Shown: positions 6,035 through 23,978, counted from the stretch's first letter. The stretch is 24,000 nucleotides of DNA from Candidatus Parcubacteria bacterium (GCA_027024305.1 JALVSO010000027.1:1959-25958); one strand, 5' to 3'. Notes: a model not told the origin generated them from the sequence alone. A program made the numbers and translations.

Positions 6035-6063
6035 CAAAATATTTTTGCTATAATAAAGGCAAT

Positions 6064-8850: not shown

Positions 8851-8856
8851 GTTTTA

Positions 8857-9652: not shown

Positions 9653-9697
9653 AATTCTATTTTAGCCGAAAAAGAAATAAAAAGCGAGAAGAGGAGA

Positions 9698-9724
9698 AAC
9701 ACCGAGGTCTTGCCTCGGTGTTTT
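9698..9724. repeat. conserved hairpin AAACACCGAGGtcttgCCTCGGTGTTTT, copy 2 of 2
   Basis: Identical to 4041-4070. It again lies between divergently oriented gene starts (9652 minus, 9749 plus). Confidence 0.7.
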
Positions 9725-9748
9725 ATGATTTTGTGTTACAATTCCCCT

Positions 9749-10129: not shown

Positions 10130-10141
10130 CGATTTTTTTTT
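10102..10141 (+). terminator. intrinsic terminator overlapping the 3' end of the toxin gene
   Basis: ATCGTTAAA-gaattat-TTTAACGAT stem flanked by A8 and T9 runs. Confidence 0.65.
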
Positions 10142-10498
10142 GAAACTTTCTCCCCCTGTAAAATAGGGGGCGAGACCTAAGCCAACTATATTGGTAGTAT
10201 ATTATAAAGAAAAAAGAAAGTCAAATTTTTTAAAGCTTTATTGTTTATATTAAAATTTAATCTGTTAATAAGTTATAAGTCGCAAGTGATAATCACCTCT
10301 ATAGTAATTAGATAGATAGTGGTTGCCTTGGTAAAAAGTGAGGTAATGAATTAGAGAAACAGTTTAAATCACCATTATTTTAGCTGAGAATACTGTTTTT
10401 TTTCTTAAAATAATGCAATAATTAAGTATTTTTATGACAAAAAAATAGCTGAAATGTGTTGAAAAATAAGGGTTTTCTAAAAATAGACACAAAAAAGC

Positions 10499-10527
10499 TT
10501 GACAAATAAATCAAAATAGTATATAAT
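10499..10527 (+). promoter_or_regulatory. consensus sigma70 promoter (TTGACA, 17 nt, TATAAT)
   Basis: TTGACA at 10499-10504 and TATAAT at 10522-10527, exactly 17 nt apart, inside a 900-bp AT-rich ORF-free region. Confidence 0.6.
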
Positions 10528-10533
10528 GCGGTC

Positions 10534-10700
10534 AGATTTTGAAAGATTGGGAAAAATTATGAAGGAGAGAGCATAATTTTTCTGAGAAAAGGAAAGGCTT
10601 TGAGAGACAAATCCAAAAATGGATTTATCTCACAAGGTCTTTGTTGACCGACCTCGGTCAGTGAAGAAAGCACTCTCTCCACGGGAGTGCTTTCTTTTTC
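10534..10700 (+). ncRNA. candidate ~165-nt small RNA (consensus promoter to intrinsic terminator)
   Basis: Bounded by the promoter above and the terminator GAAAGCACTC-9 nt-GAGTGCTTTC plus T5 (10666-10699). It contains a perfect 11-bp hairpin GAAAAATTATG-aaggagagag-CATAATTTTTC with an SD-like loop. No credible ORF. Family not recognised. Confidence 0.4.
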
Positions 10701-10736
10701 CCAGAAAAATTATACTTCGGAAATTTCTCAATCTTT

Positions 10737-10846
10737 CATCGGTCTTTAAATAACATATTAATTTATGTTCCATGTAGTCAGGTGGGTAGGTTAATACGGG
10801 TCTTGGAACAGGACTGCGGAACGCTCCACCCTTCGGTTCAACCGAT
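10737..10846 (+). ncRNA. possible ~110-nt structured element closed by CATCGGT/ACCGATG
   Basis: Long-range complementarity 10737-10743/10840-10846. Internal pairings include G-U wobbles (GTAGTC/GACTGC, GGTGG/CCACC). The only ORF here is an implausible minus-strand one (10630-10851). Confidence 0.25.
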
Positions 10847-10864
10847 GACAAGGGCTACAAACCG

Positions 10865-10933
10865 TTTTGTAAAGAAACGGCTGGAATTAAAAAGTCTAAC
10901 CAACTTTTTAATTCCGGAAATTTCTTTACAAAA
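10865..10933. repeat. long two-tier inverted repeat (69 nt hairpin)
   Basis: TTTTGTAAAGAAA..CTGGAATTAAAAAGT-ctaacca-ACTTTTTAATTCCGG..TTTCTTTACAAAA. That is 13 + 15 bp of pairing with one G-U. Confidence 0.6.
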
Positions 10934-10982
10934 TTTGTAAAGAAAAATTCGTTTCTTTGACAAAGGTTTTAAAAAATACTTC

Positions 10983-11012
10983 TTAACTGAAATATTTTTT
11001 AAACAATATAAT
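10983..11012 (+). promoter_or_regulatory. putative promoter at the AT-rich/GC-rich transition (TTAACT, 18 nt, TATAAT)
   Basis: TATAAT at 11007-11012 and TTAACT at 10983-10988. It would start transcription ~11020, reading into the structured region and the hammerhead. Confidence 0.4.
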
Positions 11013-11019
11013 GTCAAAA

Positions 11020-11563
11020 TTTGTTAAAGATCCCCGGAAAAGAAGCCGGACTTGTCAGGTATGGTTCGGCGTGTGGTTGCTGACAAGTCCGGCTTCGTGA
11101 AAACTCCGGTCAGATCTTTGGCGGATTTTTGGAAAAAATATGGATTGCTTCCCTCCACATCCGTTCCTCTCGCAATGACGACCACCGGAGGTGGTCGTTG
11201 GGACGGCGACCTGCGGTCGCCGTCATTACGAGGAGCTCGCGACGAAGTAATCCATGCAGACATTCGTCACCGTTATGTATTTTTCAAGATACCCGGTTTG
11301 TCGGCAATCACACGCCTAACCATACCCAACAAACCGGGTATCAATTTTTTCCAAAAATCCGCCCCAGGGTGGAAACAAAATGGAGGCGATGACACTGCCA
11401 TTTTTGAAGCTAAACAAAAGGTTTTAGATTCAAAAATGGCAGTGGGGCTCGTAGAGAGCGGGGCTACCCCGGCGAGGTAAACAAACTCGTCCTTGGTGAA
11501 ATTCCAAACATTGCCTTCAAATACAGAGAAGTTCAGCGTGGTTCGTTGAGCTTCTCTGCCGTC
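11020..11563 (+). ncRNA. candidate ~540-nt highly structured RNA ending at the hammerhead cleavage site
   Basis: No plausible ORF (the tracked ORFs here are Arg/Pro-rich shadows). Perfect 17-bp hairpin at 11042-11058/11080-11096. 19-bp long-range helix GGCGGATTTTTGGAAAAAA (11120-11138) / TTTTTTCCAAAAATCCGCC (11345-11363) enclosing hairpins at 11178-11198 and 11202-11224. 14-bp hairpin GATACCCGGTTTGT/ACAAACCGGGTATC. 16-bp hairpin CACTGCCATTTTTGAA/TTCAAAAATGGCAGTG. Confidence 0.45.
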
Positions 11564-11609
11564 CCGGAGTGTGCGCTCCGGCTGATGAGTCCAAAAGGAC
11601 GAAACGGTA
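11557..11609 (+). ncRNA. type III hammerhead self-cleaving ribozyme
   Basis: UGCCGUC|CCGGAG-ugugcg-CUCCGG-CUGAUGA-GUCC-aaaa-GGAC-GAAA-CGGUA. The full catalytic core is present (CUGAUGA, GAAA, GUC cleavage triplet). Stem I is 6 bp with a closed loop and stem II is 4 bp with G10.1-C11.1. Stem III is open and 6 bp (ACGGUA/UGCCGU, one G-U). Predicted cleavage is between 11563 and 11564. Confidence 0.85.
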
Positions 11610-11810
11610 AAATTGTCACGGTATGACTGCGGGATAACGAGGAAGCGACGCGGAATGACGCTGAAAAGTCCACCCTGACAAAAATAACGAAGTCCGACTT
11701 CGTTGCCTGTTCCGAAGCGAGATTTTAGCGATAAATTCTTGTCGCTAAAATCTCGCTCTTCGGAGCGAAAAGGTTCCGGCGTGTATTCGCCGGGTAAATT
11801 TAACTGAAAA

Positions 11811-11881
11811 TCACCGAGGCAAATATCCCCTATAAGCTGAAGATTATCCTTCAGTGAAATGGGGAGAATAAGCCGAGGTGA
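11811..11881 (+). promoter_or_regulatory. three-tier stem-loop in the 5' UTR immediately upstream of the RBS of the next gene
   Basis: TCACC..GGC / GCC..GGTGA, TCCCC/GGGGA and CTGAAG-attatc-CTTCAG are nested. It ends 6-14 nt before the AGGAGAG RBS and ATG 11895, and it covers the alternative ATG at 11859. Confidence 0.4.
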
Positions 11882-11894
11882 TCAGGAGAGAAAG

Positions 11895-12272
11895 ATGGCC
11901 AAGGTCATCCGTATCTCCCGCCACCCGCTGGGTGGTGATCGGGAGGCGGCTCTCAAGGCCGCCTTCGGCGATGACGTGGAAATCGTCACCGTCGATGTTC
12001 CCTATGGGGACGACCCCGTTGCCACCGTCGGTCAGCTGATTGACCGGGAAGGGGATGTCGTGGCCGTTGAGGCCCAGGCGCCCTTTCCGGTGACCATGAA
12101 GCTGGTCGACGCGAACCGGAAGCTGGGTGTTAAGTTCGTCCGCGCCGAATTCAAGCGCGGTGCGGATGGACGGGCTGTTGTCGTTGGTCAAGACGACAAT
12201 GGTCGCGACATCCTGGCTTTCGATCGCTACGTGGAGTTGCGTCGTATCGTTATTGATACGGCGGAGCTCTAA
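11895..12272 (+). CDS. hypothetical protein (125 aa)
   Basis: ATG 11895 is preceded by CAGGAGAG. The tracked ORF starts at 11859, but that ATG lies inside the stem-loop without an RBS. Protein-like composition (MAKVIRISRHPLGGDREAALKAAFGDDVEIVTVDVPYGDDP...). TAA stop. Family not recognised. Confidence 0.65.
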   Translation: MAKVIRISRHPLGGDREAALKAAFGDDVEIVTVDVPYGDDPVATVGQLIDREGDVVAVEAQAPFPVTMKLVDANRKLGVKFVRAEFKRGADGRAVVVGQDDNGRDILAFDRYVELRRIVIDTAEL

Positions 12273-13430
12273 CGGGCGACCGGCCGGGTGGCGGCGGTAC
12301 CGGCAACGTCAAGCCGGGCGTGCAGCTATGCGCGGTGGTAACGGTGAGCAACGGCTCATCATTCCGAAAGCCGATAATGGCAAATAGTGGGGATTCCGCT
12401 CCCCTTGTAGCGGGATTGACTGGAGGAGGATAATCCGATGGACAATTAGTAGCGCCGAGTCCTGGCGCCATAACAGAAATGAGGACAGCCAAAAGTGAGT
12501 GGTTTCACTTTTGGTGACCCCGGGAGGAGGGCGGCTCCTCTCAGTCGTGCACTATGCACGCAACCGTCCGAGGCGGTTCCTCGGCATGGCCTTAGGGAGG
12601 ACCTATGGCTATTTAAAAAGGCGCCTGGAGACAGGGGCGCCCGATAAATACCACTCCCTCGGGGGCAGGACGAGTTCCGGGAGAAGGGGTGAGAAGTTGC
12701 TAGCCCCGGGATATGAGACCTGCCATCATATTCCGAAATCGAAGCAACTATTGGTTGACTCCCGAGCGTGGTTTGTTCGGGGGCTTTATTGAGTCGGTAA
12801 TTTTAGATTATCGGCTCATAGAGCAAGAGGGGGGGTTGCCTTTCTCCTCCCATTCAGTTTCAAGAAGTACGGATAACTTCTTGAACCTCCGGGTCGTGCT
12901 CGGAGTTTGAATAAAAATCGGTCGGCAAAGGATTGCCGACCGGTTAGAATGACTCGGAGAAGCTTAGTTGGTCGGGCTTCTCTTAAAAAAAGTTACCATG
13001 GGGCTTAATGGCTCCATGGTAACCGGACCAACCCTCCACATTGGAGGAAAATAGGGTGTTGTTTCCTTCACCCTCCCAATTCTGAGAGTCAAGGACTACT
13101 CTCAGGATCTTCGCAAGGCGGAGTTTGGGAAAGTTTTCCATAAAAGGAATTTATGGAAGACAAAGGAAACTCGGGCCCTTATAACCGGAGGGCCTTAAAG
13201 GTAGCCCCCGCCTTGGTTAGGCGGGGGTTAGGTTGCTCCCCCGAGATGGATTTCGGGGGCTTTATTGGGCAGATCTGTTTTACAGGTCTGTCCATAGAGA
13301 ATTGAACAAACTCTTTCACCTGACTTTCTCTTCTGCAAAGAAAGTCATTGAAGGGTGGAAGGGGTTAAATTTTAATAGGGCTCAGGCCCCTCCGCCGCGC
13401 TTTTTTCATGGGCGCGGAGCAGACGGAGCA
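12273..13430 (+). ncRNA. ~1.15-kb ORF-free, hairpin-dense region (candidate large structured RNA or array of small RNAs)
   Basis: At least 9 perfect 7-10-bp hairpins: 12489-12514, 12860-12884, 12919-12942, 12992-13023, 13082-13105, 13205-13227, 13238-13259, ~13321-13347. Two are terminator-like units ending ...TTCGGGGGCTTTATTG (12758-12795, 13238-13269). The tracked ORFs here have non-protein-like composition. Strand is assumed from the neighbouring genes. Confidence 0.4.
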
Positions 13431-13447
13431 CCTTAAGGAGGTGAAAC

Positions 13448-13687
13448 ATGAATGAAGACAAAAAAAAAGAGGTGGAGTGGGTCTTGGCCAACTTCACCAA
13501 GGAGGAGGTCCTCGGGGAAATCGAGGATCTGGAAAGGCGAATCCCACTTGAGTGGGAGGACGCTAATGATGCATATTCCGAGCCCTGTGCGGGCGCGGAA
13601 TCGAACTATTATTCAATAGTTCGAGGAATCGACGAAATGGAGGAGCGCCTGGAAGCGTTCCGGGAAGCATATAGGCTCCTCCAGTAG
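13448..13687 (+). CDS. small acidic hypothetical protein (79 aa)
   Basis: Strong RBS AAGGAGGTGA 7 nt upstream of the ATG. TAG stop, followed by an intrinsic terminator. Confidence 0.65.
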   Translation: MNEDKKKEVEWVLANFTKEEVLGEIEDLERRIPLEWEDANDAYSEPCAGAESNYYSIVRGIDEMEERLEAFREAYRLLQ

Positions 13688-13708
13688 ATTTAGATTCCTG
13701 TGCACATT

Positions 13709-13757
13709 TCCCGAGCGGTGGTGTTGTAGTGACATTACCCGCTCGGGACTTTTTTTG
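13709..13757 (+). terminator. intrinsic terminator, CCGAGCGG-hairpin family copy 1
   Basis: TCCCGAGCGG...CCGCTCGGGA 10-bp stem with an inner GTA/TAC helix, followed by CTTTTTTT. It is near-identical to 18115-18160. Confidence 0.8.
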
Positions 13758-13782
13758 AAAATTCAAAAATTTGAATTTTCAA
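13755..13782. promoter_or_regulatory. perfect 13-bp inverted repeat TTGAAAATTCAAA-aa-TTTGAATTTTCAA (operator-like)
   Basis: Exact palindrome read directly. It lies between the terminator and the module-end repeat. Confidence 0.4.
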
Positions 13783-13802
13783 AGAAGGGATTTCCGGGGA
13801 AC

Positions 13803-13875
13803 AAATCTTTTGCAACGTTTTTGAACGTCCCAGGGACGTACCGGAATTTGGATTTGAATCTGCCTAGAGTTTTTT
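13803..13875 (+). repeat. module-end repeat, copy A1 (short version)
   Basis: AAATCTT...TGAACGTCCCAGGGACGTACCGGAATTTGGATTTGAATCTGCCTAGAGTTTTTT. It shares the ACGTCCCAGGGACGT palindrome and the GATTTGAATCTGCYTAGAG+T-run tail with 22168-22320 and 23826-23978. GC content drops immediately after it. Confidence 0.75.
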
Positions 13876-13896
13876 AGAAATTTAAAAAAGAAAATT

Positions 13897-14088
13897 ATGA
13901 AAGAAATTATATTTATAACATCCATCATTTCAGGTCTCCTGATATTTTTTATCTTTATTTTCTCTTTGGATTTGGATGCCGGAATTATGGCTATTTTGGC
14001 AGCCTTTTTTGGTTCGGCCTATAACCGGTTATATCTTTTTCTAAATCATTTATTTAGAGAAAAACATCCGGAGAAAAGTGAGTTTTAA
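13897..14088 (+). CDS. possible small two-TM membrane protein (63 aa) in an AT-rich patch
   Basis: Intact ORF with hydrophobic segments (IIFITSIISGLLIFFIFIF, IMAILAAFFG). Weak RBS. Its AT-rich composition is unlike the flanking GC-rich blocks. Confidence 0.4.
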   Translation: MKEIIFITSIISGLLIFFIFIFSLDLDAGIMAILAAFFGSAYNRLYLFLNHLFREKHPEKSEF

Positions 14089-14126
14089 AATGTCTTTTGA
14101 AATGAAAACAGCTAGTCTTGCATTTT

Positions 14127-14174
14127 CCGAGCGGTATTTTGTTGACAAAACTTTGCCGACAAAATACCGCTCGG
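14127..14174. repeat. 16-bp perfect hairpin of the CCGAGCGG family (no T-run)
   Basis: CCGAGCGGTATTTTGT-16 nt-ACAAAATACCGCTCGG. Its outer arms are the same as the two terminators at 13709 and 18115. Confidence 0.6.
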
Positions 14175-14345
14175 GAGAGTGGTGAATTGGCTTTTGCAGA
14201 GCCCATCTTTAGTCTGAAAGCATAGCTGCAAAGAATATGCTTTCTGGGTGATCCGCGACCAACAAGACTGCGGGGAGTGCTAGGTTCTGAACTTCCAACA
14301 ATAGGAAGGAATGAAGCGCTCAAGCTCAAAATTCGGAGGTGAATA

Positions 14346-15458
14346 ATGAGCAAAAAAAACATTGCGGAGCTGGCTCCGCAAAAAAATGTGGCGGAAAAGA
14401 TTTCTCAGGCTCTGTCTGAGAATTTTATCCGCTCCGAGAGAGTTGCCCGTATTCTCGCCCTTGCGGTGGAATCGGGCAAAAATGTATTACTTTGGGGGCC
14501 GGGCGGACACGGCAAGTCCGAGATGGTGGAGCTTGCGCTCGCGCAAGTCGCCGACTCGGACGACGTGTTCGTCCAATCCTTTGGCGAGGGCATGGATGAG
14601 GCAACCCTTTGGGGTGGCCTTGATTTCCAGGCCCTCGAGTCGGAAAAGGTGCTTCGGTATTTTCCGGAGCAAAGCTTCCTTGCGAAGCCTTTTGCCGTCT
14701 TTGAGGAGATCTTTGACGCCCCGGCGTCGGTTCTCCTCGCCCTGAAGGATACCCTGACGGCGCGCAAGCTCCGCAAGGGTGGTCAACAATTTCCTATGGA
14801 AACCAAAGTGATCATCGCGATCACCAACAAGGATCCGGAGGAAATTTCTGACCTCGGCCCCGCCGCAGCTGCTCTGGTGGAGCGGTTCCCGCTCCAGCTC
14901 AATGTAGATTGGGACTCCTATGAGGCCCGGGACTACACCGAGCTGTTTGATAAGGTCGGATCTCGGCTCCCGGGGGCGGATCTCAACGGCACCCAGCGGG
15001 TGCTGGCGGAGATTATCGCCAAGGCTTCGGCCGATGGCGATATTATTTCACCCCGCACCGCGGTTCACGCCCTCGGCGTGGTCAAGACCGCGGCGGCCCT
15101 GCGAGGCTCAGACCGGGTGGAGAAGGAGGACCTGGTGGACCTCCAGTACCTGCCCGGCATGGAGGACCTGGCGGATAATATCCGTCAGGAGTTGGACGCC
15201 GCCTACGAGCGGGCCGAGGCAGAGCGCCGGCTGGTTGCGGCCGAGGATCGGTTGCGTGAACTGTTGGCGGAGCTCCACGACGCAACGACGCCAATCAAGG
15301 CACTCCAAGTTGCTCGCCGCCTGCAGTCTCTGCAGGACGACACCAGCAACCTGAAAGTGCCGGACGGTCTCACCGACCGGCGCAAAAACCTGCGCAACTC
15401 TATCAGCGAGAAGGTGCAAGCGGCGCAGGAGCTTGCCCTTCAAAACACCCGCATCTAG
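14346..15458 (+). CDS. MoxR/CobS-like AAA+ ATPase (370 aa)
   Basis: RBS GGAGGTGA. Walker A LLWGPGGHGKSE, Walker B-like AVFEEIFDA, and sensor-like IIAITNKD and ISPRTAV. C-terminal coiled-coil-like tail. TAG stop. Confidence 0.8.
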   Translation: MSKKNIAELAPQKNVAEKISQALSENFIRSERVARILALAVESGKNVLLWGPGGHGKSEMVELALAQVADSDDVFVQSFGEGMDEATLWGGLDFQALESEKVLRYFPEQSFLAKPFAVFEEIFDAPASVLLALKDTLTARKLRKGGQQFPMETKVIIAITNKDPEEISDLGPAAAALVERFPLQLNVDWDSYEARDYTELFDKVGSRLPGADLNGTQRVLAEIIAKASADGDIISPRTAVHALGVVKTAAALRGSDRVEKEDLVDLQYLPGMEDLADNIRQELDAAYERAEAERRLVAAEDRLRELLAELHDATTPIKALQVARRLQSLQDDTSNLKVPDGLTDRRKNLRNSISEKVQAAQELALQNTRI

Positions 15459-15473
15459 CGGGAGGAGGAAAAA

Positions 15474-16850
15474 ATGAACTTTACGTTCAGAACAACTCCT
15501 CCCGCTACCTATATCCCTCCGAACTCGGAGGAGATGCGGGAGGTCGCGGCTAAGGTCGGGCTGAAGGGATTCAGCCGCGACCTGGTCGCGGACCTGTGTA
15601 ACCTGGCGGCGGGGGGAGCAATCCAACCCCCGTCGGCGTATCGGGAAATCGTACACCGGCAGGTGGAGGAAAAGCTCCCTGCCCCCGATAGCGATGGCGA
15701 GTGGTCGGTTGGAGGTGGCTACACCAAAGACCGTCTGCAAGCTATCAATCACCGCCTGGAAAAAGCGATGAGATACCATCAGAATGTCTGCGATTTCTTG
15801 CAGACGGTGGACCTCAGCGCCTTTCCCGGCCGAAGCCCCCTTGAGCAGGCCATGAGCTTGCTCAAGCTGCTTTCCAAGCAGGAGGGTGGCTCCGGCGGCG
15901 GTGAGGGGGGCGAGCCCCTGCCCATCTTCCAGGACAATGATCGTCCGGAAGGTGTCGCCGAAAAACTCCATGAGACCATGGAGTTGGCGGAGTCGCTGGA
16001 CGAGACCGAGCAGGAGATGCTCGATCCGGATGGTGACTGGCAGGAGGATGCCGAGCAGGATGGACAGGAAACCGGCTCCTCGGGGCTTCAAGCCCTGAAG
16101 GTTGCCGAGGACCTGGTCGACGGGAGTGACAAGCGCGCCATGCTTGAGATTTCCCGTCAGCTTGACCAGTTTACCAAGCTGCAAGTGCGGCGACAAAAAC
16201 TGGTCAAGCCAGATCCTACCGGCGACGAAATCCGAACCCGGGGCATCAAGCATCTTGGAGAACTCGGCAGAGTCTCCAAAAGTGCTTGGGCCACCCGCCA
16301 ACAACAGCCGACGTACTTTTTGTACCAGGCTGTGACCGGTCAGCTCCCCGTTCGGGAGCGGGTGACCCGCCAGGAGAAGAAACAGGCGATCTTCATCCTG
16401 GTTGACGGCTCCGGGTCTATGGAGGGCCGCAAACACCACAAGGCCACGGGGGTGGTGATGAACCGCCTCAAGGCAGTGGTGGACGGCGACGCGGAGGTTT
16501 GGGTTTCGGTCTTTGACACCGAAATGTCCAATCCAATGCATGCCGGAAATGCGGAGGAGGCCCGGGAACTGATCAAACAGTTCCGTCATGGCAACTTCCG
16601 CGGCGGCGGCACCGACATCGCCAGCGCGGTGAAAGCCGCGCACGCCTTCATTGAGGAAAAGATGAAGGCGGGCGAGGCGCTTTGGAGACCGGAAGTGGTA
16701 GTCCTCACTGATGAGGACAGCTCCACGCAAGGTCTCCGCAAGTCTGAGGTCAAGGGCACTCGTGTCCACGGATTTGCAATCGAGCGCAAAAACAAGCCGC
16801 TGGTGACTTTTGCCAAGTCAACCGGCGGCGTGGGGATTGAAAACTTTTAG
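15474..16850 (+). CDS. von Willebrand factor A (vWA/MIDAS) domain protein (458 aa)
   Basis: RBS GGAGGAGG. It starts 15 nt after the AAA+ gene. C-terminal vWA domain with the MIDAS motif ILVDGSGSM plus GGGTDI and VVVLTDED. Acidic linker. TAG stop. Confidence 0.8.
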   Translation: MNFTFRTTPPATYIPPNSEEMREVAAKVGLKGFSRDLVADLCNLAAGGAIQPPSAYREIVHRQVEEKLPAPDSDGEWSVGGGYTKDRLQAINHRLEKAMRYHQNVCDFLQTVDLSAFPGRSPLEQAMSLLKLLSKQEGGSGGGEGGEPLPIFQDNDRPEGVAEKLHETMELAESLDETEQEMLDPDGDWQEDAEQDGQETGSSGLQALKVAEDLVDGSDKRAMLEISRQLDQFTKLQVRRQKLVKPDPTGDEIRTRGIKHLGELGRVSKSAWATRQQQPTYFLYQAVTGQLPVRERVTRQEKKQAIFILVDGSGSMEGRKHHKATGVVMNRLKAVVDGDAEVWVSVFDTEMSNPMHAGNAEEARELIKQFRHGNFRGGGTDIASAVKAAHAFIEEKMKAGEALWRPEVVVLTDEDSSTQGLRKSEVKGTRVHGFAIERKNKPLVTFAKSTGGVGIENF

Positions 16851-16874
16851 TTGAATATCCTCTGGTTATTTTCT

Positions 16875-16920
16875 GTGAAACTTGGCTTGGTGTGGTGCCA
16901 AGTCAAGTTTCACTTCTTTA
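16875..16920 (+). terminator. probable terminator after the vWA gene
   Basis: GTGAAACTTGGCTTGG-tgtggtg-CCAAGTCAAGTTTCAC (16 bp, one G-U) followed by the U-rich TTCTTTAT. Confidence 0.55.
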
Positions 16921-16970
16921 TCAAGCATCCAAAATGGTTTGGGTGCTTGTAGAGAAAAGGAGGTGAAAAA

Positions 16971-17012
16971 ATGAAAAATCGGGATCCTCCGATGATGCCC
17001 GAACTCGGCTAG
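16971..17012 (+). CDS. possible 13-codon micro-ORF (MKNRDPPMMPELG) with a very strong RBS
   Basis: AAGGAGGTGA lies 6 nt upstream of the ATG and the ORF ends in TAG. It sits at the start of a 0.7-kb non-coding region. It could be a leader peptide or coincidental. Confidence 0.25.
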   Translation: MKNRDPPMMPELG

Positions 17013-17564
17013 GGCTAAAACACTCTGAGGCCGACGGTTGGGCCGAGACACCGTTGGGGCGATGTTCCTGCCGATGGAGCCCGTTTCAGTATATTTCAAG
17101 ACCGGAGAGCTGCTGACTCTTTGATGGCTTGGGATATGGTAAAGCTGAATGGCCGGGTGATGCCGGTAAAACAAACATCAACACGAAGCAATGGTTAGAG
17201 AACATCCAGCCAAGTGTATTGCCCGTGCAAAAAACGGGTGTATAAAAATCTCAACTCCGGTTTTCCCGGGGCGGCATGGTGTCGTAGATACGCAATGCGG
17301 CACTTAACCTCTTACTAACGGAGGATGGTTATGCGTATAAGGGACCCCCCTTAGGTTTTGGTCATTTTCATTCTAATAATTATTGGAGTGGAAATGACCT
17401 TGGATAGAGGAAGTGCTTGGTAGTGCTTCCTCTCTACTTTTGGGAATATAACTTTTAGGAGTTGTATTTCCAAGGAGTGGATTTTTCTCTTTTAGTGAAG
17501 CGGGATAGAGAGCCTGAAGTTTTTTGGGTTTTGTCTTCCGTTTCACTAATTTAGGGAGGGTAGT

Positions 17565-18107
17565 ATGGAATTTTTTTCTAAGGATGGAGGTGTTGTTGTT
17601 GTGCCGTGGGGCACACAGCAACACCTCCGCGCTCACCCGGACGTCTTGGATGTCCTGGGTGAGGCAATTTCAAAAATTGAACTCCCCACGGATGGGGAGT
17701 TTCTGAAAACGACCGTTGATCTGGGAAGGGTTATCGGTCGTTCCGGGGCGGTGGAGACCGACCCGATTCAATACGACGAGCAGACCTGGTTTGCCCATCG
17801 TATTGGGCGGGACGGACCTTCACGTGTTGTTTTGGACACGGAAGGTCCGGAGGTTTCCACCGTTGCGATCCTGGCGTTCCAAGCCAGGGATCGCAGCACC
17901 GGGAAAATCCAGCCGGGCAAGTACATCCTTGCTACGGCATGGATCGGCTCGGCGGAGGCCGAGCGAGAGCCCTGGGACAAGGGCATAAAAACAGAGCGGG
18001 AGCGCCAAGCCGCACTGCGGTATTGGTGCTCCCATGCTCTGGTCTATGACAAGGAGGTCATGGACAAGCCCTTCCAATCTTCATGGAAGGAGATTTTGGA
18101 AGGGTGA
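17565..18107 (+). CDS. hypothetical protein (180 aa)
   Basis: RBS GGGAGGG. Globular-looking composition. Apparent TGA stop followed by an intrinsic terminator. Family not recognised; the N-terminal HLRAHPD is only a weak hint of a nuclease-type His motif. Confidence 0.65.
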   Translation: MEFFSKDGGVVVVPWGTQQHLRAHPDVLDVLGEAISKIELPTDGEFLKTTVDLGRVIGRSGAVETDPIQYDEQTWFAHRIGRDGPSRVVLDTEGPEVSTVAILAFQARDRSTGKIQPGKYILATAWIGSAEAEREPWDKGIKTERERQAALRYWCSHALVYDKEVMDKPFQSSWKEILEG

Positions 18108-18114
18108 ATCTTTT

Positions 18115-18160
18115 TCCCGAGCGGTGGTGTTGTGGTGACATCACACGCTCGGGACTTTTA
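18115..18160 (+). terminator. intrinsic terminator, CCGAGCGG-hairpin family copy 2
   Basis: TCCCGAGCGG...CGCTCGGGA followed by CTTTTATT. The inner helix GTG/CAC covaries with GTA/TAC in copy 1. Confidence 0.75.
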
Positions 18161-18206
18161 TTGTGCCGGTAACTTTCCAAGTTACGGGCACATAGAAGTT
18201 TTTCAT

Positions 18207-18324
18207 TTTTTTTCACGGACTCCCTTGTCCGTTCAATTGTGCCGGTGATGAACCGGAAGTCCTACGGGGCGCGAACAGACAAGGGGCTTGCCGAAAGGTG
18301 AGTGTTCTGTTCGTGGAGAGAGAA
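18207..18324 (+). promoter_or_regulatory. structured 5' leader, copy 1 of 2
   Basis: ~95% identical to 19042-19159. It contains ACGGAC-tccctt-GTCCGT, CCGG-tgatgaa-CCGG, and GAACAGA...[CUUGCC-GAAA-GGUGAG]...UCUGUUC, then the GGAGAGAG RBS. Confidence 0.6.
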
Positions 18325-19041
18325 ATGAAGGCGTTGGAAAAAATCAACATCGCCGCGCCGTTTGTTTTCGCTGCAGTGGAGTCGATTACCCTGATAGAGC
18401 CCTCTATTTGGAGGGCGAATGCCGACATCCGTTTTTATATGGATATCTGGTATTCGATTTGGGTGGTCAGTGTTGGGATGCAATACGCTCCGAAATGGGC
18501 GATTGCATTTCTTACATGGTCTCTATTGCCACCGCTCCTCGGTGTGTACGAGGGGGCGAGGTACGAAAACGCATCCGATGCATTTTTGCGCCTTGATGCG
18601 TTGATTTGCGTAGGGTTTTTGCTCTACGAAATAGCAATCATAGAGGTTGCCCATCACCACTTTGAAAAAGTTTTTGGATGGCTCCTGCCGTCCAAATATG
18701 AGGTGGTGGAGCGCATCGGTGTATCATGGATGATCCGGTGTTACAAGGAGTTGTATCGCCAAATGGCGCGATGGTGGAAGGTTGGAGGAAATCATGGATT
18801 GATGATTCTTTGCGCCTTAAGTTTTGCCAAATTCTTTGGTAACTCGGGACAAAAAAGAGGGAATTTGCTTCTCCACGAGATTGAGACCAGTGAAGTCTCA
18901 GTTCGTATCGCCGACAATGGAGATATAGTTTTGTCGGCAAGCAAGCGGACCCTAGACGTCGCAACCATTGCGATACGAAAGGCGGAGGAAGGCGGATTAA
19001 GCGCCGCCGTTGAATTCCTCCATTCGCACGCGGAAGTTTGA
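18325..19041 (+). CDS. hypothetical membrane protein (238 aa)
   Basis: ATG 18325 follows the GGAGAGAG RBS; the tracked start at 18298 lies inside the repeated leader. Several hydrophobic, Trp-rich segments. Apparent TGA stop at 19039-19041. Confidence 0.65.
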   Translation: MKALEKINIAAPFVFAAVESITLIEPSIWRANADIRFYMDIWYSIWVVSVGMQYAPKWAIAFLTWSLLPPLLGVYEGARYENASDAFLRLDALICVGFLLYEIAIIEVAHHHFEKVFGWLLPSKYEVVERIGVSWMIRCYKELYRQMARWWKVGGNHGLMILCALSFAKFFGNSGQKRGNLLLHEIETSEVSVRIADNGDIVLSASKRTLDVATIAIRKAEEGGLSAAVEFLHSHAEV

Positions 19042-19159
19042 TTTTTTTCACGGACTCCCTTGTCCGTTCAGCTTTGCTGGTGATGAGCCGGAAGTCCTGC
19101 GGGGCGCGAACAGACAAGGGGCTTGCCGAAAGGTGAGTGTTCTGTTCGTGGAGAGAGAA
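19042..19159 (+). promoter_or_regulatory. structured 5' leader, copy 2 of 2
   Basis: It starts immediately after the preceding stop codon. About 6 substitutions relative to copy 1, including CCGG>CTGG, which keeps pairing as G-U. Confidence 0.6.
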
Positions 19160-22100
19160 ATGAGCAACAAAAAGTTGCCGGTCGCGGAGTTCCGCGAGCA
19201 AATCGTTTCAACCGTTGCCTCTAATCCGGTAACGGTCATTACAGCTGAGACCGGCGCGGGCAAGTCCACGCAGGTGCCTCAGTACCTGCTGGACGAGGGT
19301 TACAACATCGTTGTGACCCAACCCCGGCGGTTGGCTGCTCGGACTGTTGCCGAGCGCGTGGCCGAGGAATACGGTTGCGAGTTTGGCGATATCGTTGGCT
19401 TCCGCACCGCCCATGACCGCCAGGACAGCGACAACACCCGTTGTCTTTTTGTCACGGATGGTCTGGCGCTGGTGCGTGAGCTTATGGGTGCCGGCACCCA
19501 CGACTGCCTGATTCTTGATGAGGTTCACGAGTGGAACCTCAATATTGAGGTACTCGTGGCGTGGGTGAAGAAGCAGGTCGCCCGGAATCCCAAATTCAAA
19601 GTGGTGCTGATGAGTGCCACTTTGGAGGCGGAGAAGTTGGCGAGCTTCTTTGGCGGTGCGCCCATCATTGAGGTGCCGGGACGTACCTTCCCCGTGGAGG
19701 AGCGCAAAGTCGGTGAAAGCCTGCACGACGACATTGTTGAGCTTGCTCGGCAGGGTCGAAATGTGCTGGTTTTCCAGCCCGGCAAGGCAGAAATTGAGGA
19801 AACCGTCAGGTACCTTGAAAATCTGCCGGACCTGGACGCCAGGGTTTTGCCGCTTCACGGTGGCTTGACCAAGGAGCAGCAGGCGGCGTGCTTCAAAAAC
19901 TATCACCAACCGAAGATTGTCGTCAGCACCAATGTCGCGCAGACATCGGTGACCATTGATGACATTATTGCGGTTGTTGATTCCGGGATGGAGCGCCGGG
20001 TGGAGCTGGTGGACGGGGTTGAGGGCTTGTACCTGCGCCCCATTTCACTGGCCGATGCCAAGCAGCGCCGGGGGCGTGCCGGCAGGACCAAGCCGGGGAT
20101 TTATATCGATCACTGCCCGGCCAAGCCGGAAGATCGGCGTGAGTTCCCGATGGCGGAAATCCTGCGGGTGCGCCTGGACCAAACCGTTCTCCGTTTGGCT
20201 ATGGCTGGCTTTGATATGGAGGAGCTTCGGTTCTTCCATCAGCCCAATATTGCTGAAATCCATGAGGCCAAGCGTGCTCTGCATGCTCTGGGTTGCATGG
20301 ATGAGAACGGGAAGGTTACGGAGGTTGGTCGCGCTGTTTCCCGTTTGCCGGTCTCCGTTCAGTATGGGCGGATGATTGTGGAAGCGGAGAAGCTCGGGGT
20401 TGTGGGCGATGTTATCAAGATCGCCGCAATTCTGGAGCAGGACGGCATCACCGCCCGCAAGGTCAAATTGGATGACCGCTGGGTGGAGGCTAAGCCTCTG
20501 TGGCTGCCGCTGACCAACGGGGAGAAGGAGTCGGACGCTCTGGCTCAGCTCAATGTGTATGAAAATGCACAGAGCATGAGCAAGTCCCAGATGTATGAGT
20601 CTGGGGTCTTCGTGAAGGACTTTTATTTCGCGAAGGAGCGAGTTCGCCTCCTGAAAAAAGCGCTGGAAAGGAGGGTTCGTCATATGGACTCAACCGGAAA
20701 GCGCGAGGACATTCTCCGGGCGGTTCTTGCCGGGATGGTGGATCACTTGTATAAGTATAATTACGGTGATTACCAAAACGGCGATGGGGTCAACCGCCGG
20801 ATCAACAAGGATTCCGTTGTATCTGGTGGCGACTGGATTGTCGGTAAACCCTTTGACCTGGAAATCAACGGTCGTTACGGACCGTTCACCATTAATTTGG
20901 TGACCATGGTCACAAAGGCGGACCCGATGATTCTGGCGGAAGTGGCACCCCAGCTGGTGACCATTGAAGCCGGTCTTTCTCCGCGATACAGTGTCGATCG
21001 AGGGTGTGTGGTATCTACCACAAAAACGCTCTTCAACGGCATGGTTATCAAGGAGGAGGAGGTTGATGACATCAACCATCCCGAAGCGTCGGCCATCCTG
21101 GATGAGCAGGCATGGAAGGAGTGGAAAGGTCCGGAGATTCTGGTTCCCGATTTCAGTTTGGCGGGTGAACTGCCGGCTGAAATTCCGGAAATCCGCGAGG
21201 AGGTCTATATCAAGTCGCGGGTGGATGGTCGTCCACTTTCTGCCTATGGGGTCGTTTATCATGACTCCTGGTCTGGTTGGAAAAGTAAGTGGACGCGGGA
21301 CCGGAAGGAGGCCGAAAGTCTCCACGAGCAAGCCGAGAAGAAGCTTGCCGAACTCCGGAAACAAAAAGCCGTCCGCGACTGTATTGAGCGCGAGCTTGAT
21401 GCGGTCAACCGTCGCCGGGAGGCGATCGGTTTGTCTCCGATTAAAATGCGGGATTCCGGTTTTTCTCACAACGGTTGGTCGCGAGACTATACCGAGGAGA
21501 AGTGGGAGAAGGTATTGCAGGAGACGGCGGATAAGGAAGCCGAGGCGGCTGCTGAGCGGGCCCGGGCCGAGAAGGAAGCCAAGGAGGCACGCCTCATTGA
21601 GGAAGGTGCCTTTACCGGTTTCACCGGGGTCTGGTGCCGTCGTAGTGGCTCCAACCAGGGTGATGGCTGGGTCATTCGTCCGGGCGGTTCTTTTCGGGAG
21701 CACGACTCCATTGATAACCCTCGTCCGCGTTACAAGAGTGAAGGGTATAAGTCGTGGAATGTTGTGCGCCCGGATGAACTGGCCATTTCCTGGCGGAAGC
21801 ATACCCGGGCCTCCGAACACGAGTTCGAAGTTGCTCATCTGCCGGAGTCTTTGACTGCCGAGCAGGTGAAGGCGATGGAGACTCTGCTGGAAGAACTGGA
21901 GGAGGCTTGGGACGGCGCCACCGGCCTGGCTTCGGGCAAGAAGAGCCCGAGCGTTGGTGAGGGTTGGGTTAACCCTGAGACGGGCGAAAGTCTGACCAAG
22001 GGGTTCCGGACCTCTCGTCAAAAGCGGGAGGGTTCCGAGGCTAGCTGGACCGGAAAGGCCGGAGGGGTTGAAGAGGAGACCAACTCCGTTGTTTATGAGA

Positions 22101-22162
22101 CGGGAGAGGTTGATTTCAATAATCCCTTCGCCGCTCTGGCCGCCCTGAAGGGGAAACTCTGA
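19160..22162 (+). CDS. DEAH/RHA-family (HrpA/HrpB/DHX-like) helicase with a long uncharacterised C-terminal extension (1000 aa)
   Basis: ATG 19160 follows the GGAGAGAG RBS; the tracked start at 19010 runs through the leader repeat. Motifs: TAETGAGKST, ILDEVHE, SAT, TNVAQTSVTIDD, QRRGRAGR. These are followed by HA2/ratchet-like and OB-like regions (WIVGKPFD...MVTKADPMILAEVAP). About 380 aa follow with a Lys/Glu/Ala coiled-coil and no family I recognise. Apparent TGA stop. Confidence 0.85.
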   Translation: MSNKKLPVAEFREQIVSTVASNPVTVITAETGAGKSTQVPQYLLDEGYNIVVTQPRRLAARTVAERVAEEYGCEFGDIVGFRTAHDRQDSDNTRCLFVTDGLALVRELMGAGTHDCLILDEVHEWNLNIEVLVAWVKKQVARNPKFKVVLMSATLEAEKLASFFGGAPIIEVPGRTFPVEERKVGESLHDDIVELARQGRNVLVFQPGKAEIEETVRYLENLPDLDARVLPLHGGLTKEQQAACFKNYHQPKIVVSTNVAQTSVTIDDIIAVVDSGMERRVELVDGVEGLYLRPISLADAKQRRGRAGRTKPGIYIDHCPAKPEDRREFPMAEILRVRLDQTVLRLAMAGFDMEELRFFHQPNIAEIHEAKRALHALGCMDENGKVTEVGRAVSRLPVSVQYGRMIVEAEKLGVVGDVIKIAAILEQDGITARKVKLDDRWVEAKPLWLPLTNGEKESDALAQLNVYENAQSMSKSQMYESGVFVKDFYFAKERVRLLKKALERRVRHMDSTGKREDILRAVLAGMVDHLYKYNYGDYQNGDGVNRRINKDSVVSGGDWIVGKPFDLEINGRYGPFTINLVTMVTKADPMILAEVAPQLVTIEAGLSPRYSVDRGCVVSTTKTLFNGMVIKEEEVDDINHPEASAILDEQAWKEWKGPEILVPDFSLAGELPAEIPEIREEVYIKSRVDGRPLSAYGVVYHDSWSGWKSKWTRDRKEAESLHEQAEKKLAELRKQKAVRDCIERELDAVNRRREAIGLSPIKMRDSGFSHNGWSRDYTEEKWEKVLQETADKEAEAAAERARAEKEAKEARLIEEGAFTGFTGVWCRRSGSNQGDGWVIRPGGSFREHDSIDNPRPRYKSEGYKSWNVVRPDELAISWRKHTRASEHEFEVAHLPESLTAEQVKAMETLLEELEEAWDGATGLASGKKSPSVGEGWVNPETGESLTKGFRTSRQKREGSEASWTGKAGGVEEETNSVVYETGEVDFNNPFAALAALKGKL

Positions 22163-22167
22163 GGGGT

Positions 22168-22320
22168 GGATTTGGGAGGAGGTGTTGGTTACACCTTCCT
22201 CCCTCCGGCTGTCATTTCTGGCAGCCGGGCTTTATAGCGGGTTTAAATCTTCTGAACGTCCCAGGGACGTACCGAACCCAGGGACGTACCGGATTTGAAT
22301 CTGCTTAGAGTTTTTTTGGA
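22168..22320 (+). repeat. module-end repeat, copy A2 (153 bp)
   Basis: It differs from 23826-23978 at only 2 positions. Layout: hairpin GGGAGGAGGTGT-tggtt-ACACCTTCCTCCC, hairpin CCGGCTG..CAGCCGG, then ACGTCCCAGGGACGT with a tandem duplication of CCCAGGGACGTACCG, then GATTTGAATCTGCTTAGAG plus T7. Confidence 0.85.
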
Positions 22321-22531
22321 AGATTTTAGGGAATAATTTTATAAGAATTTTAAAAGTAAATTAGTATTTCCCTCTTTGTATTTTTAGGAATATAAAGAGG
22401 GGGTTGTTAATACCCTCGTGCGTCTTAGCCGTTTAGGCTGTGCTCGACGCACAGCCCATGCAGAGGCATGGGTTAATTATGTGCCTGCGGGGATAGCCTT
22501 CATGGCTTGAAACGCGGGTGGAGGTCCTGAA

Positions 22532-23371
22532 ATGGACAAAAAAAACAAGGCGGCGACTGCCTCTAAAGTCGCAAAAAATCTGGTATTTTTTCTTGGTGGT
22601 GCCGACGCAGAGATGCGTCGCATCGCCGAGGTGCTGGCAGAGGCCGGCATTGAATACCATGACGCCGGCCTGGGCTGGGGCGCTGCCGCCTCGGCCTACG
22701 GTGACGCCATCGCCGAGGCCTCCGGCGCCGGCAAGACGCCGGTGCTGGTGGAGTTGGAGGTCGACTGCGACCTGCCCGAGGGGGTGGTCGTGGTTGACCA
22801 CCATGGAGATCGTGCCGGCGAGCCGCCGGCCATTCTGCAGGTTCTCAACCTGCTCGGCAGGGAGCCGAGTCGGTGGGACCTGCTGGTGGCGGCCAACGAT
22901 GCCGGGTGGTTTCCCGGTCTCGTTGGTGAGGCGGAGATCCCCGGTATGGGGCGTTTCTCCCCGCCGGCGACGGCGGAAGAGATGGCGGCGGTTCGTGCCA
23001 CTGACCGGGCCGCTCAGGGCATTACGCCTGAGCAGGAGCGGGAGGCGGAGCGGGCGCTGGCTGCCCTCGTTGAGGAGATTGGCGGCGTTCGGGTCATCCG
23101 GATGAGCCACTCCAAGACGGCACCGATTGGCGACCGCCTCGCCATTGATGCCCTCGCCTCCGGCCGGCCCATCCCGGCCTACCTCGTCCTCTCCGGGGAC
23201 GGGGAGGTGAACTTCTCGGGTGACGGTGCACTGGCCGCCGCCCTTCATGAGAAGTTCCCGGGTGGCTGGGCCGGCGGTGCCGGCCTCGGCAAGGTTGGGG
23301 GAAGCGCCTTTTGGGGCGGCTACCCCGACCACGAGGAGGCCCTCGCGTTCATTCGCGAGTATACCTCCTAA
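22532..23371 (+). CDS. hypothetical protein, weakly DHH-phosphoesterase-like (279 aa)
   Basis: RBS GGTGGAGG. It contains VVVDHHGD and a Gly-rich C-terminal segment (GGWAGGAGLGKVGGS). The assignment rests on short motifs only. TAA stop. Confidence 0.6.
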   Translation: MDKKNKAATASKVAKNLVFFLGGADAEMRRIAEVLAEAGIEYHDAGLGWGAAASAYGDAIAEASGAGKTPVLVELEVDCDLPEGVVVVDHHGDRAGEPPAILQVLNLLGREPSRWDLLVAANDAGWFPGLVGEAEIPGMGRFSPPATAEEMAAVRATDRAAQGITPEQEREAERALAALVEEIGGVRVIRMSHSKTAPIGDRLAIDALASGRPIPAYLVLSGDGEVNFSGDGALAAALHEKFPGGWAGGAGLGKVGGSAFWGGYPDHEEALAFIREYTS

Positions 23372-23604
23372 TCGAACTTCGCCACCGAGAGTGAAGTGAA
23401 ATAAAGTGCTCGGCCCGGTGCCTGCGTGGTGCAGGCGCCGGGAGGTTTGAGGCAAGCTTGGTTAAGTTTGCCTTTCTTATTCCGATTGCAAGGGTGTTTC
23501 TTTGCGGTCGGATAGGAAATTAGTCGCCGGGCTTTGTTGAGAGGTTCGGCAAAAATCAACTTTGCGGTGAGGGTAAAGACCCAACAATCCGCGGGAGACC
23601 AGCC

Positions 23605-23826
23605 ATGGCAGAAATATGCCATAATATAAAATGGGCACTAATCTGCCCATGGTCCTACGTCGTCATCCACCCGAACGGATACACCGTTCTGGTGGACAGG
23701 TACGAATGGAATCGTTTGGCAGAGGCCAAGGAAAGGGCCTATGAAGAGAACCAAAAAACCGATGCATATCTGCATCGGGTGTATGGGCCGTTTTGGCGCC
23801 CATATATTGATTCCAAAATATGTTAG
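23605..23826 (+). CDS. small Trp/Tyr-rich hypothetical protein (73 aa)
   Basis: Intact ORF with a GGGAGA RBS-like sequence. TAG stop, followed directly by repeat copy A3. Confidence 0.5.
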   Translation: MAEICHNIKWALICPWSYVVIHPNGYTVLVDRYEWNRLAEAKERAYEENQKTDAYLHRVYGPFWRPYIDSKIC

Positions 23827-23978
23827 GATTTGGGAGGGGGTGTTAGTTACACCTTCCTCCCTCCGGCTGTCATTTCTGGCAGCCGGGCTTTATAGCGGGT
23901 TTAAATCTTCTGAACGTCCCAGGGACGTACCGAACCCAGGGACGTACCGGATTTGAATCTGCTTAGAGTTTTTTTGGA
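23826..23978 (+). repeat. module-end repeat, copy A3 (153 bp)
   Basis: Near-identical to 22168-22320. AT-rich sequence resumes after the T-run. Confidence 0.85.

Follow-up and report, generated by a model that had tools for sequence, protein, structure and literature searches.

What closes the GC-rich gene blocks on this piece of a Candidatus Parcubacteria chromosome, and why does the same sequence recur where they end? The DNA analyzed is a stretch of 24,000 nt (GCA_027024305.1 JALVSO010000027.1:1959-25958; hereafter the window), and the sequence in question is a repeat present in three related copies, one short (A, 13803-13875) and two long (B, 22168-22320, and C, 23826-23978). An earlier account made without database searches (the sequence-only reading) had placed the copies at GC-rich to AT-rich transitions and proposed a recombination site or protein-binding site at the 3' end of each inserted module. 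Our results point to sense-strand RNA 3'-end elements. Copies A, B and C would be local, recently duplicated forms of a lineage-specific composite ("V-shaped") intrinsic terminator, a reading to which we assign a probability of roughly 0.58.

Three repeats with a strand-specific RNA fold

A repeat search and the blocks shared among the copies confirm all three at the positions given above. B and C form a 153-nt pair with 99% identity and, as had been described, differ at only two positions; when the window is extended with the independent scaffold L001, self-BLAST lengthens the pair to 162 nt at 97.5%. The short copy A has two blocks in common with them, TTYTGAACGTCCCAGGGACGTACCG (13819-13843) and GGATTTGAATCTGCYTAGAG with its T-run (13850-13875). 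The 15-nt palindrome ACGTCCCAGGGACGT is just as previously noted: a near-perfect 7+1+7 palindrome with the same letters in A, B and C, it has exactly three occurrences, far above chance (0.35 expected even with three mismatches allowed). The 20-mer GGATTTGAATCTGCYTAGAG also occurs three times, against 0.01 expected. The tandem duplication of CCCAGGGACGTACCG, with a 17-nt period, was likewise found as claimed, in the long copies B and C only. On the 3' side of A, B and C, the GC fraction dips to 0.34-0.38, ~0.45 and ~0.48, respectively, from blocks of 0.5-0.7.

Repeats of this kind could have been created or mis-joined by the assembler. Independent assemblies do stop at other repeats nearby (L003 and L002 end near 18113-18183, and L001 begins at 19109), and L001 contains a 100-N scaffold gap farther to the right, at the right junction of the GC-rich gene island in which the copies lie. 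However, not one mismatch was found over 4,892 nt, from the helicase past copy C, in L001, an independent scaffold in the ENA that carries the helicase gene, copy B, a DHH-like gene, a 73-aa gene, copy C and the gene after it; B and C also have two differing positions and distinct flanks. Because this independent scaffold reproduces the region, we treat the repeats as genuine and an assembly artefact as extremely improbable.

A functional RNA is suggested by the fold of the long copies, which was calculated for both strands of B. As RNA, the plus strand folds at -79.8 kcal/mol (z -6.0) and the minus strand at -59.3 kcal/mol. With DNA parameters the corresponding values are -37.7 and -34.3, and the basal stem no longer forms; since the strand difference nearly vanishes, the fold relies on G.U pairs. 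The plus-strand RNA of B consists of three hairpins, HP1 (22174-22203), HP-A (22205-22228, 10 bp) and a long hairpin (22230-22310), followed by U7 (T7 in the DNA, 22311-22317). At the base of the long hairpin, box1 CTTTAT (22230-22235) and box2 TTAGAG (22305-22310) enclose a bulged A (22236) and the hairpin HP-B (22237-22304), within which lie the palindrome (22256-22270) and two occurrences of a 15-mer (22260-22274 and 22277-22291). Copy C repeats this anatomy at +1658. HP-B is unusually long in B and C, its apex being made of the palindrome and the 17-nt tandem duplication, and HP1 is an extra hairpin ahead of HP-A. Both differences between B and C are structure-neutral, one replacing A-U with G.U in the HP1 stem and the other changing one HP1 loop base. 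The partially complementary AAATC and GATTT boxes that had been said to flank the palindrome simply form, in the RNA fold, the two sides of the stem of the long hairpin.

Copy B, on the plus strand like A and C, starts 5 nt past the stop codon of the helicase gene (TGA, 22160-22162), and copy C starts directly past the TAG (23824-23826) of the 73-aa gene. Copy A holds one palindrome unit (13825-13839), GGATTTGAATCTGCCTAGAG (13850-13869) and T6, with no 5' arm for the long hairpin, and adjoins the 3' side of a complete two-hairpin motif (13710-13789). After HP-A comes GCUUUAUAG, and after HP-B comes a U-run (U7 in B and C, U6 in A), so that each shows the hairpin and U-tract of an intrinsic terminator.

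A family of two-hairpin motifs

The repeats belong to a wider family, whose members have the same architecture and unrelated sequences and lie at other gene ends of the island and on related contigs. The generic motif comprises a GC hairpin (HP-A), a linker of 0-2 nt, box1 CUUUAU(U/A), one bulged base, a variable HP-B and box2 AU(A/G)GAG. The U-rich box1 pairs with AU(A/G)GAG across the bulge to form the basal stem of HP-B, while the apical stem is long, nearly perfect and free in sequence. A strict regular expression, CTTTATWG..YWTAGAG, missed variants and was replaced by a structure-only descriptor and then by a covariance model. Although B and C were left out of its seed, the model recovered both at full length with filters off, as matches to their plus-strand cores at 22204-22314 (E 0.044) and 23862-23972.

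Six further members, all on the plus strand, were found in the window. Two precede the 79-aa gene (13448-13687), at 12761-12826 (43.5 bits; CTCCCGAGCG..GGGGG CTTTATT GAGTCGG..CGGCTC ATAGAG) and 13240-13303 (45.3 bits). The complete motif next to copy A (13710-13789; model match 13716-13789, 26.3 bits) lies 22 nt past the stop of the 79-aa gene and is composed of a GC hairpin (13710-13747) of the same family as the hairpin at 18113-18163, CTTTTTTT and an AT-rich palindromic hairpin. Another (16875-16957, 50 bits) follows the end of a MoxR-VWA gene pair, 25 nt past the stop of the VWA gene (15474-16850), and the member at 18115-18201 (46.7 bits), whose first hairpin is 92% identical to 13707-13757, lies 8 nt past the stop of a 180-aa gene (17565-18107). 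The last (23437-23521, 55.4 bits) follows the DHH-like gene (22532-23371) and has an 82%-identical copy after the next gene beyond the window (L001 6007-6145). Overall, seven of nine island members are found 8-78 nt past a plus-strand stop codon; measured as whole units, B and C are 5 nt and 0 nt past theirs.

Outside the window, members occur in L140 (~12 copies in 23 kb, of two sequence families), L007, L008, L033, L035, L054 and L144, with a variant in L141, and the fold is identical in 20-22 instances from seven contigs. When 22 instances were aligned with MAFFT, pairing held in 98% of the cells of HP-B, compared with 76% after shuffling and 40-50% with slid partners. Both sides are altered in 12 of 16 HP-B pairs, as expected of compensatory change, and the covariation score of 0.733 (vs 0.274) was equalled in none of 500 shuffles. 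Compensatory differences are also seen between orthologues, at L140 9895 (GGTTCACCTG..CAGGTGGACC) and L007 1745 (GGTTCACTTG..CAAGTGAACC). Across both hairpins of 20 members, the 360 cells comprise 296 Watson-Crick pairs, 57 G.U (~16% of stem pairs), 0 A.C and 7 others; these pairing statistics indicate that the fold is selected on one strand only. The model gave 38 matches in 0.67 Mb of helicase-anchored loci, every one of them on the helicase (gene) strand, and 0 matches in 1.18 Mb of other loci from the Candidate Phyla Radiation (CPR). Rfam (release 15) returned nothing for the repeats at the gathering threshold or at E<=5, nor for the L140 motif array at E<=1.

The structure is thus more widespread than the particular sequence of the copies. 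The exact 21-mer GAACGTCCCAGGGACGTACCG had 0 matches in genome, viral and metagenome contig collections (the source genome is not among them), no motif match was found in phage-labelled contigs, and BLASTN with the 153-nt unit and with the short form gave 0 matches in 53 helicase-anchored loci and in L140 and L141; the 15-mer is absent from the related loci examined as well. When other island elements were searched against the same loci, a 5' leader and hammerhead cores were the sole matches. As far as these searches extend, the exact 153-nt sequence is unique to the window locus among the collections and loci covered. The proposal that the repeats mark each GC-to-AT transition holds in part: the copies do precede GC dips, but at least five other gene ends between 12.7 and 23.5 kb carry members of different sequence. 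The sequence-only reading had also allowed that a repeat dispersed at gene 3' ends would be simply a reused terminator cassette, and at the level of the structural family, in several genomes, this is largely what was found.

Together with the adjoining motif at 13710-13789, copy A amounts to that motif plus a shortened copy of the B/C type, with a first hairpin as in the 18113 element and a 3' part as in B and C. Because copy A joins these two parts, the elements appear to be mosaics of exchangeable halves that recombine.

Two shorter signatures were noted among the hairpins. Loops at 12768, 16890, 17417, 22185, 23458, L007 2113 and L141 868 hold UGGU(U/A) (e.g., CUUGGUUAG and GUGUUGGUUACAC), and the stem CCCGAG..CUCGGG is recurrent across genomes in terminator-type hairpins of the island and its relatives.

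Proposed termination and its misfits

Seven of the nine island members trail a plus-strand stop codon, and between each of them and the next open reading frame (ORF) lie an AT-rich patch and a structured leader; for this reason we read the repeats as terminators and 3'-end caps. The GC-to-AT transitions are then probably plain gene-to-intergenic transitions of self-contained transcription units that end in these repeats. RNA polymerase leaving a GC-rich accessory gene would terminate at HP-A and its U-tract, and read-through transcripts would be caught by HP-B and its U-run, where present. The two stacked helices would also shield the 3' end from exonucleases and isolate the following unit, which would restart from the downstream AT-rich patch. 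A sigma-70 scan of the AT-rich patches gave no convincing plus-strand promoter, and CPR promoters may differ from the consensus.

V-shaped terminators, in which two hairpins abut, are a rare class, with 1,615 of 1.23 million terminators in WebGeSTer (PMC3013805). The motif has this form, since the linker between HP-A and HP-B is 0-2 nt in 20 of 20 aligned instances. It resembles V-shaped and other intrinsic terminators in having a sense-strand GC hairpin and U-rich tract tens of nucleotides past the stop codon, with the second hairpin immediately after and, in A, B and C, a further U-run behind that second hairpin. Unlike in that class, the U-tract of the first hairpin doubles here as the 5' basal strand of the second; both boxes, the single bulge and a U.G pair show conservation from one genome to another; and the element, which is confined to accessory modules, does not serve the genome as its general terminator.

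Several observations weigh against a plain terminator. The U-tract after HP-A is short and interrupted, most family members have no U-run after HP-B, and B and C were not flagged by a simple terminator scan. No recognisable ORF lies ahead of the members at 12761 and 13240. The strict conservation of box1, box2, the bulge and the U.G pair exceeds what a plain terminator needs. Housekeeping plus-strand genes in L141 and L144 are without the motif, which is found with the helicase or accessory modules only. In L140, all ~12 copies are on one strand and three flanking AAA_14 genes are on the other, the plus-strand copies lying 5-40 nt from the 3' ends of these minus-strand genes; two of the three cases may be a single tandem duplication. 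The orientation beside opposite-strand genes, the travel with accessory modules, and the occupation by hammerhead ribozymes of the same slot in relatives (see below) are misfits to a plain terminator.

Hammerhead ribozymes and the processing alternative

Alternatively, the stacked HP-A/HP-B helix, with its conserved bulge and U.G pair, could be recognised and cut (RNase III being one candidate) in transcripts that are polycistronic or result from read-through. Such a processing or insulation site would separate the fates of neighbouring cistrons and would be a protein-dependent counterpart of hammerhead ribozymes in the same slot. HP-B with its basal stem indeed provides a near-perfect duplex of 18-30 bp, and the junction nucleotides are conserved beyond what pairing requires. 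The position of hammerheads in related loci is also suggestive. In L011 a type III hammerhead (3628-3682, 43.1 bits) lies between the helicase and the DHH-like gene, which is the slot of copy B in the window, and in L009 another (9823-9877) immediately precedes the helicase leader, a position taken by the motif in L140, L144 and L035.

The window itself holds a type III hammerhead on the plus strand (11556-11610; 45.7 bits, E 1.9e-7, where the gathering score is 48.5), with the canonical core CUGAUGAG..CGAAAC, directly after a terminator-like hairpin (11523-11557). Hammerhead cores were seen in L031, L034 (three) and L056 as well. In being long sense-strand intergenic hairpins between co-directional genes, the repeats are comparable to phage T7 RNase III sites and to hammerheads (RF00008), which occupy the same slots in relatives. 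However, the repeats contain no hammerhead or other ribozyme core. The motif itself is unlikely to be a self-cleaving ribozyme, as it has no conserved unpaired core and no Rfam ribozyme match. These two negative results also count against a processing site, and the U-rich box and U-runs are explained more simply by termination. We consider processing improbable, if worth keeping in view, as the principal role of the element; it overlaps the terminator reading, and the two need not exclude each other.

Recombination and protein-binding alternatives

A different possibility is that the element acts as DNA. The strand-locked hairpin pair would then be a single-stranded cassette boundary, comparable to attC sites, to repetitive extragenic palindromes (REPs) and their associated tyrosine transposases (RAYTs) or to IS200/IS605 ends, at which modules are inserted and excised. 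Occurrence on one strand in 38 of 38 model matches would suit such a site, as would a single conserved extrahelical base, the L140 copies that abut three opposite-strand AAA_14 genes within 5-40 nt, and the association with accessory modules and not with housekeeping genes. Direct repeats bracket modules, adjacent units differ in GC fraction (0.50 to 0.68), and gene order is not constant, the DHH-like gene preceding the helicase in L007 but following it in L011 and the window.

The search for a nearby recombinase that the sequence-only reading had called for was unproductive. The genes called in 28.8 kb around the repeats, and those in 23 kb of L140, include no integrase, Y1 transposase or TnpB. 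Pfam and PHROG scans and precomputed gene tables gave no tyrosine recombinase, and so no IntI, in the 28.8 kb covered of a 41-kb source contig, and no Y1 (HUH) transposase or TnpB, such as accompanies IS200/IS605, PATE or REP-RAYT elements, was found in the window, L001 or L140. Target-site duplications are also absent. The ~16% of stem pairs that are G.U stabilise RNA and contribute nothing under DNA parameters, the elements lie right past stop codons and are followed by T-runs, and the minus-strand cases in L140 are partly one tandem duplication. Taken together, these results make a DNA-level recombination or mobility site unlikely.

Comparison with particular site classes leads to the same view. 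Like attC sites, the motifs stand at the 3' ends of gene units in one orientation and have short, imperfectly complementary basal boxes, a variable centre and an extrahelical base. In contrast to attC sites, they have no RYYYAAC/GTTRRRY cores (by reading of the sequence, no fitting 7-mer is present at the element ends, where the boxes are CTTTAT and (A/T)TAGAG), they carry an extra upstream GC hairpin and T-runs, and no IntI is seen. The attC fold is one of the bottom strand, whereas here it is the top strand that, as RNA, folds better by 20 kcal/mol, depends on G.U pairs and carries the single bulge; the suggested comparison of folding with attC-like and IS200/IS605-like ends thus came out in favour of the sense strand. 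Integron cassettes are promoterless and tightly packed, unlike the units here, which have long AT-rich and structured upstream regions. REPs in bacterial interspersed mosaic elements, RAYT-associated REPs and IS200/IS605 ends are likewise extragenic hairpins that occur as repeats and have a bulged base and a conserved short motif (..TAGAG here, compare GTAG in REPs). However, no Y1 or TnpB gene lies near the repeats or in L140, the copies never form inverted pairs, and the hairpins are mutually unrelated. HP-A and HP-B are unrelated in sequence and all 38 matches have the same orientation, at odds with REP doublets (REPINs). As regards miniature inverted-repeat transposable elements, the internal sequences of members are unrelated and no duplication flanks B or C.

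One contig, L144, does contain an IS200/IS605-type Y1 transposase (PF01797), flanked by perfect palindromes TTGTAGAGGTTWAACCTCTACAA (17587-17611 and 18334-18358) in a REP/RAYT-like arrangement. These palindromes differ from the two-hairpin motif in sequence and structure, and L144 also carries one motif. A repeat of a clustered regularly interspaced short palindromic repeat (CRISPR), retron or toxin-antitoxin system was rejected, as there is no array periodicity and there are no reverse transcriptase or Cas genes.

The island units also bear comparison with phage morons. These are said to have been described around 2000 (Hendrix, Juhala) as autonomous units of deviating GC content with a factor-independent terminator, whose shared non-coding border sequences reportedly serve as recombination points. 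The units here similarly have deviating GC content, end in a terminator-like element and share non-coding borders. They differ in belonging to a bacterial chromosome island with no phage structural genes, and their promoters are putative.

Finally, the palindrome ACGTCCCAGGGACGT might be an operator at which a dimeric DNA-binding protein controls the downstream unit. Its near-perfect 7+1+7 symmetry, its exact retention in the three copies and its partial duplication in B and C would be consistent with such a role. Against it, the palindrome lies 72-276 nt from the next start codon and upstream of the T-run, not in a promoter; it is the apex of an RNA hairpin; it is absent from all related loci fetched; and no candidate regulator is adjacent. 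An operator is very unlikely on this evidence.

Gene units bracketed by repeats

Near-identical direct repeats are found on either side of several gene units. The module between B and C (22532-23826, plus strand) contains the DHH-like gene (22532-23371) with its own predicted two-hairpin terminator and the 73-aa gene (23605-23826). Upstream of B lies the gene of the HrpA-like DEAD/DEAH helicase (19160-22162, plus strand), which ends at that copy. A structured 122-nt leader repeat, 95% identical between its two copies and including the ATG, flanks a 238-aa gene: leader copy a (18207-18328) runs up to the ATG of the 238-aa gene and copy b (19042-19163) up to that of the helicase, both on the plus strand. 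The leader and helicase of L141 are enclosed by copies of a ~100-nt motif variant, and a 354-aa gene of L140 by those of an 80-nt repeat (99% identical). Gene order varies too, the DHH-like gene being upstream of the helicase in L007 and downstream in L011 and the window.

Each accessory gene or gene pair would be a self-contained unit, made of an AT-rich upstream patch, a structured leader, an ORF and a terminator, within a gene pool shared among Paceibacteria. Through recombination inside the non-coding elements that the units share, units would be gained or would become duplicated, a process that would leave near-identical copies on either side of an inserted unit. The bracketing repeats can be read as the footprint of such insertion or duplication, a history that we infer from the arrangement of the repeats. 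Of the cassette or tandem-integration architecture proposed before, what stands is that the repeats end self-contained units and that near-identical direct repeats flank modules; the dedicated recombination site at the module 3' end does not, given the absence of a recombinase among the called genes and of an attC core, and the sense-strand fold. The statement that no matching left-end repeat is evident is correct for the B/C family, but the 5' leader repeat flanks another gene.

The leader is of interest in itself. About 120 nt long, with several hairpins and ending in GAGAGAGAAATG, it is conserved upstream of HrpA-like helicases in many CPR contigs and is duplicated, in the window, before the unrelated 238-aa gene. 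Homologues precede the helicase at L007 2195-2310, L140 10007-10084 and L141 951-1082, and similar sequences were seen in L009, L012, L032, L054 and L144. No Rfam family matches the leader, a possible cis-regulatory RNA.

The 279-aa product of the DHH-like gene matches models of type III CRISPR-associated accessory proteins (PADLOC C3a116, E 2e-54; DHH_CorA, E 1.5e-32); no CRISPR-Cas genes are near it, and the gene also neighbours the helicase in L007 and L011. In L140, ~12 motifs, all on one strand, punctuate paralogous AAA_14/DUF4143 ATPase genes in both orientations (6957-22148), and four tandem, strong promoter-like copies of CTTGACAAAATTTGCAAAATGTGATATGGTGG occur 75-107 nt apart at 4137-4454.

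A GC-rich island in a UGA=Trp host

The window has two parts that differ in composition and in genetic code. From 1 to ~11,000 it is AT-rich (30-45% GC), and TGA is a sense codon in pheT and in all genes within 1-10,130. The pheT gene (63-2033) forms a single open frame in which TGA occurs four times, each time aligned with Trp of standard-code homologues. Its closest relatives, from metagenome-assembled genomes (MAGs) labelled 'Campbellbacteria' (69% identity) and 'Parcubacteria' (66%), both look TGA-sense as well, and TGA is a sense codon in the related loci L060 and L061. According to a 2026 review, recoding of UGA within the CPR is confined to the Gracilibacteria lineage, where the codon means Gly (PMC13293708). 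A clade of Paceibacteria with UGA=Trp may therefore be under-reported.

From ~11,040 to ~25,580 (the right part being taken from L001, to ~6475), a 14.5-kb GC-rich (50-70%) island of co-directional genes has no internal TGA. It encodes a 125-aa and a 79-aa protein, the MoxR-VWA pair, a 180-aa protein (phrog_23674), a 238-aa protein, the HrpA-like helicase, the DHH-like protein, and proteins of 73 and 321 aa. Because three of these genes end in TGA, those of the 180-aa protein (18105-18107), the 238-aa protein (19039-19041) and the helicase (22160-22162), the island is written in the standard code; with the host code, the 180-aa gene would run on for ~245 codons. The nearest relatives of the helicase (80% and 69% identity) are ordinary chromosomal genes in standard-code CPR MAGs of ~50% GC (L140 and L141), and the island accordingly looks imported from GC-richer relatives. 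An origin from a jumbo phage was considered, as two IMG/VR contigs of ~245 kb hold a helicase relative, and was rejected in view of those closer chromosomal relatives and of the lack of the motif in phage-labelled contigs. No relative of the 180-aa protein was found in viral contigs.

A 65-nt hairpin with a perfect 17-bp stem flanks the island in inverted orientation (11039-11103 and L001 6411-6475, 95% identity). A third copy (79%, L001 9490-9553) adjoins a tRNA-Thr(CGT) gene (L001 9554-9629), 3 kb to the right of the island, and ahead of it are GGTTCAAGTTGYAAGG-type repeats that also occur at the right end of the island, where L001 has the 100-N gap. Either the island was imported recently from a lineage with another code, or a chimeric join took place at the repeated hairpin; import looks likelier. 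A search for empty sites among pheT-anchored loci of 80 CPR genomes met no synteny beyond pheT, and a scan of the window for tRNA and transfer-messenger RNA genes found none.

Two further intervals are potential sources of RNA. Within the island, 12273-13447 is a hairpin-rich 1.2 kb of ~50% GC with no convincing ORF, which holds the motifs at 12761 and 13240; a 28-nt stretch of it (12295-12322) recurs after an unrelated gene in L141 (650-677). This interval may contain non-coding RNA genes. In the host part, a near-consensus promoter (10499-10527; TTGACA, 17 nt, TATAAT) is followed by ~170 nt without an ORF and by a hairpin with a T-run (10665-10700). The interval 10499-10700 is a candidate small RNA with no Rfam match.

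Biological meaning

A reused terminator-type cassette is in itself ordinary. The two-hairpin motif, however, is supported by covariation, is not in Rfam and is limited to accessory modules of one CPR lineage, and it could mark the movement of such modules between uncultured, genome-reduced bacteria. A bolder and doubtful interpretation is that the motif represents an undescribed class of strand-locked two-hairpin elements at the junctions of a module-shuffling system for Paceibacteria accessory genes, acting either as an RNA processing or insulation signal interchangeable with hammerheads or as a single-strand recombination site. If this were true, the system would have brought standard-code GC-rich genes, three of them ending in TGA, into a host lineage in which UGA means Trp.

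The positional equivalence with hammerheads yields a testable hypothesis, namely that bacterial intergenic hammerheads serve as transcript punctuation. And a GC-rich, standard-code island within an AT-rich UGA=Trp member of the Paceibacteria would allow the transfer of genes between lineages with different genetic codes to be studied in a natural setting.

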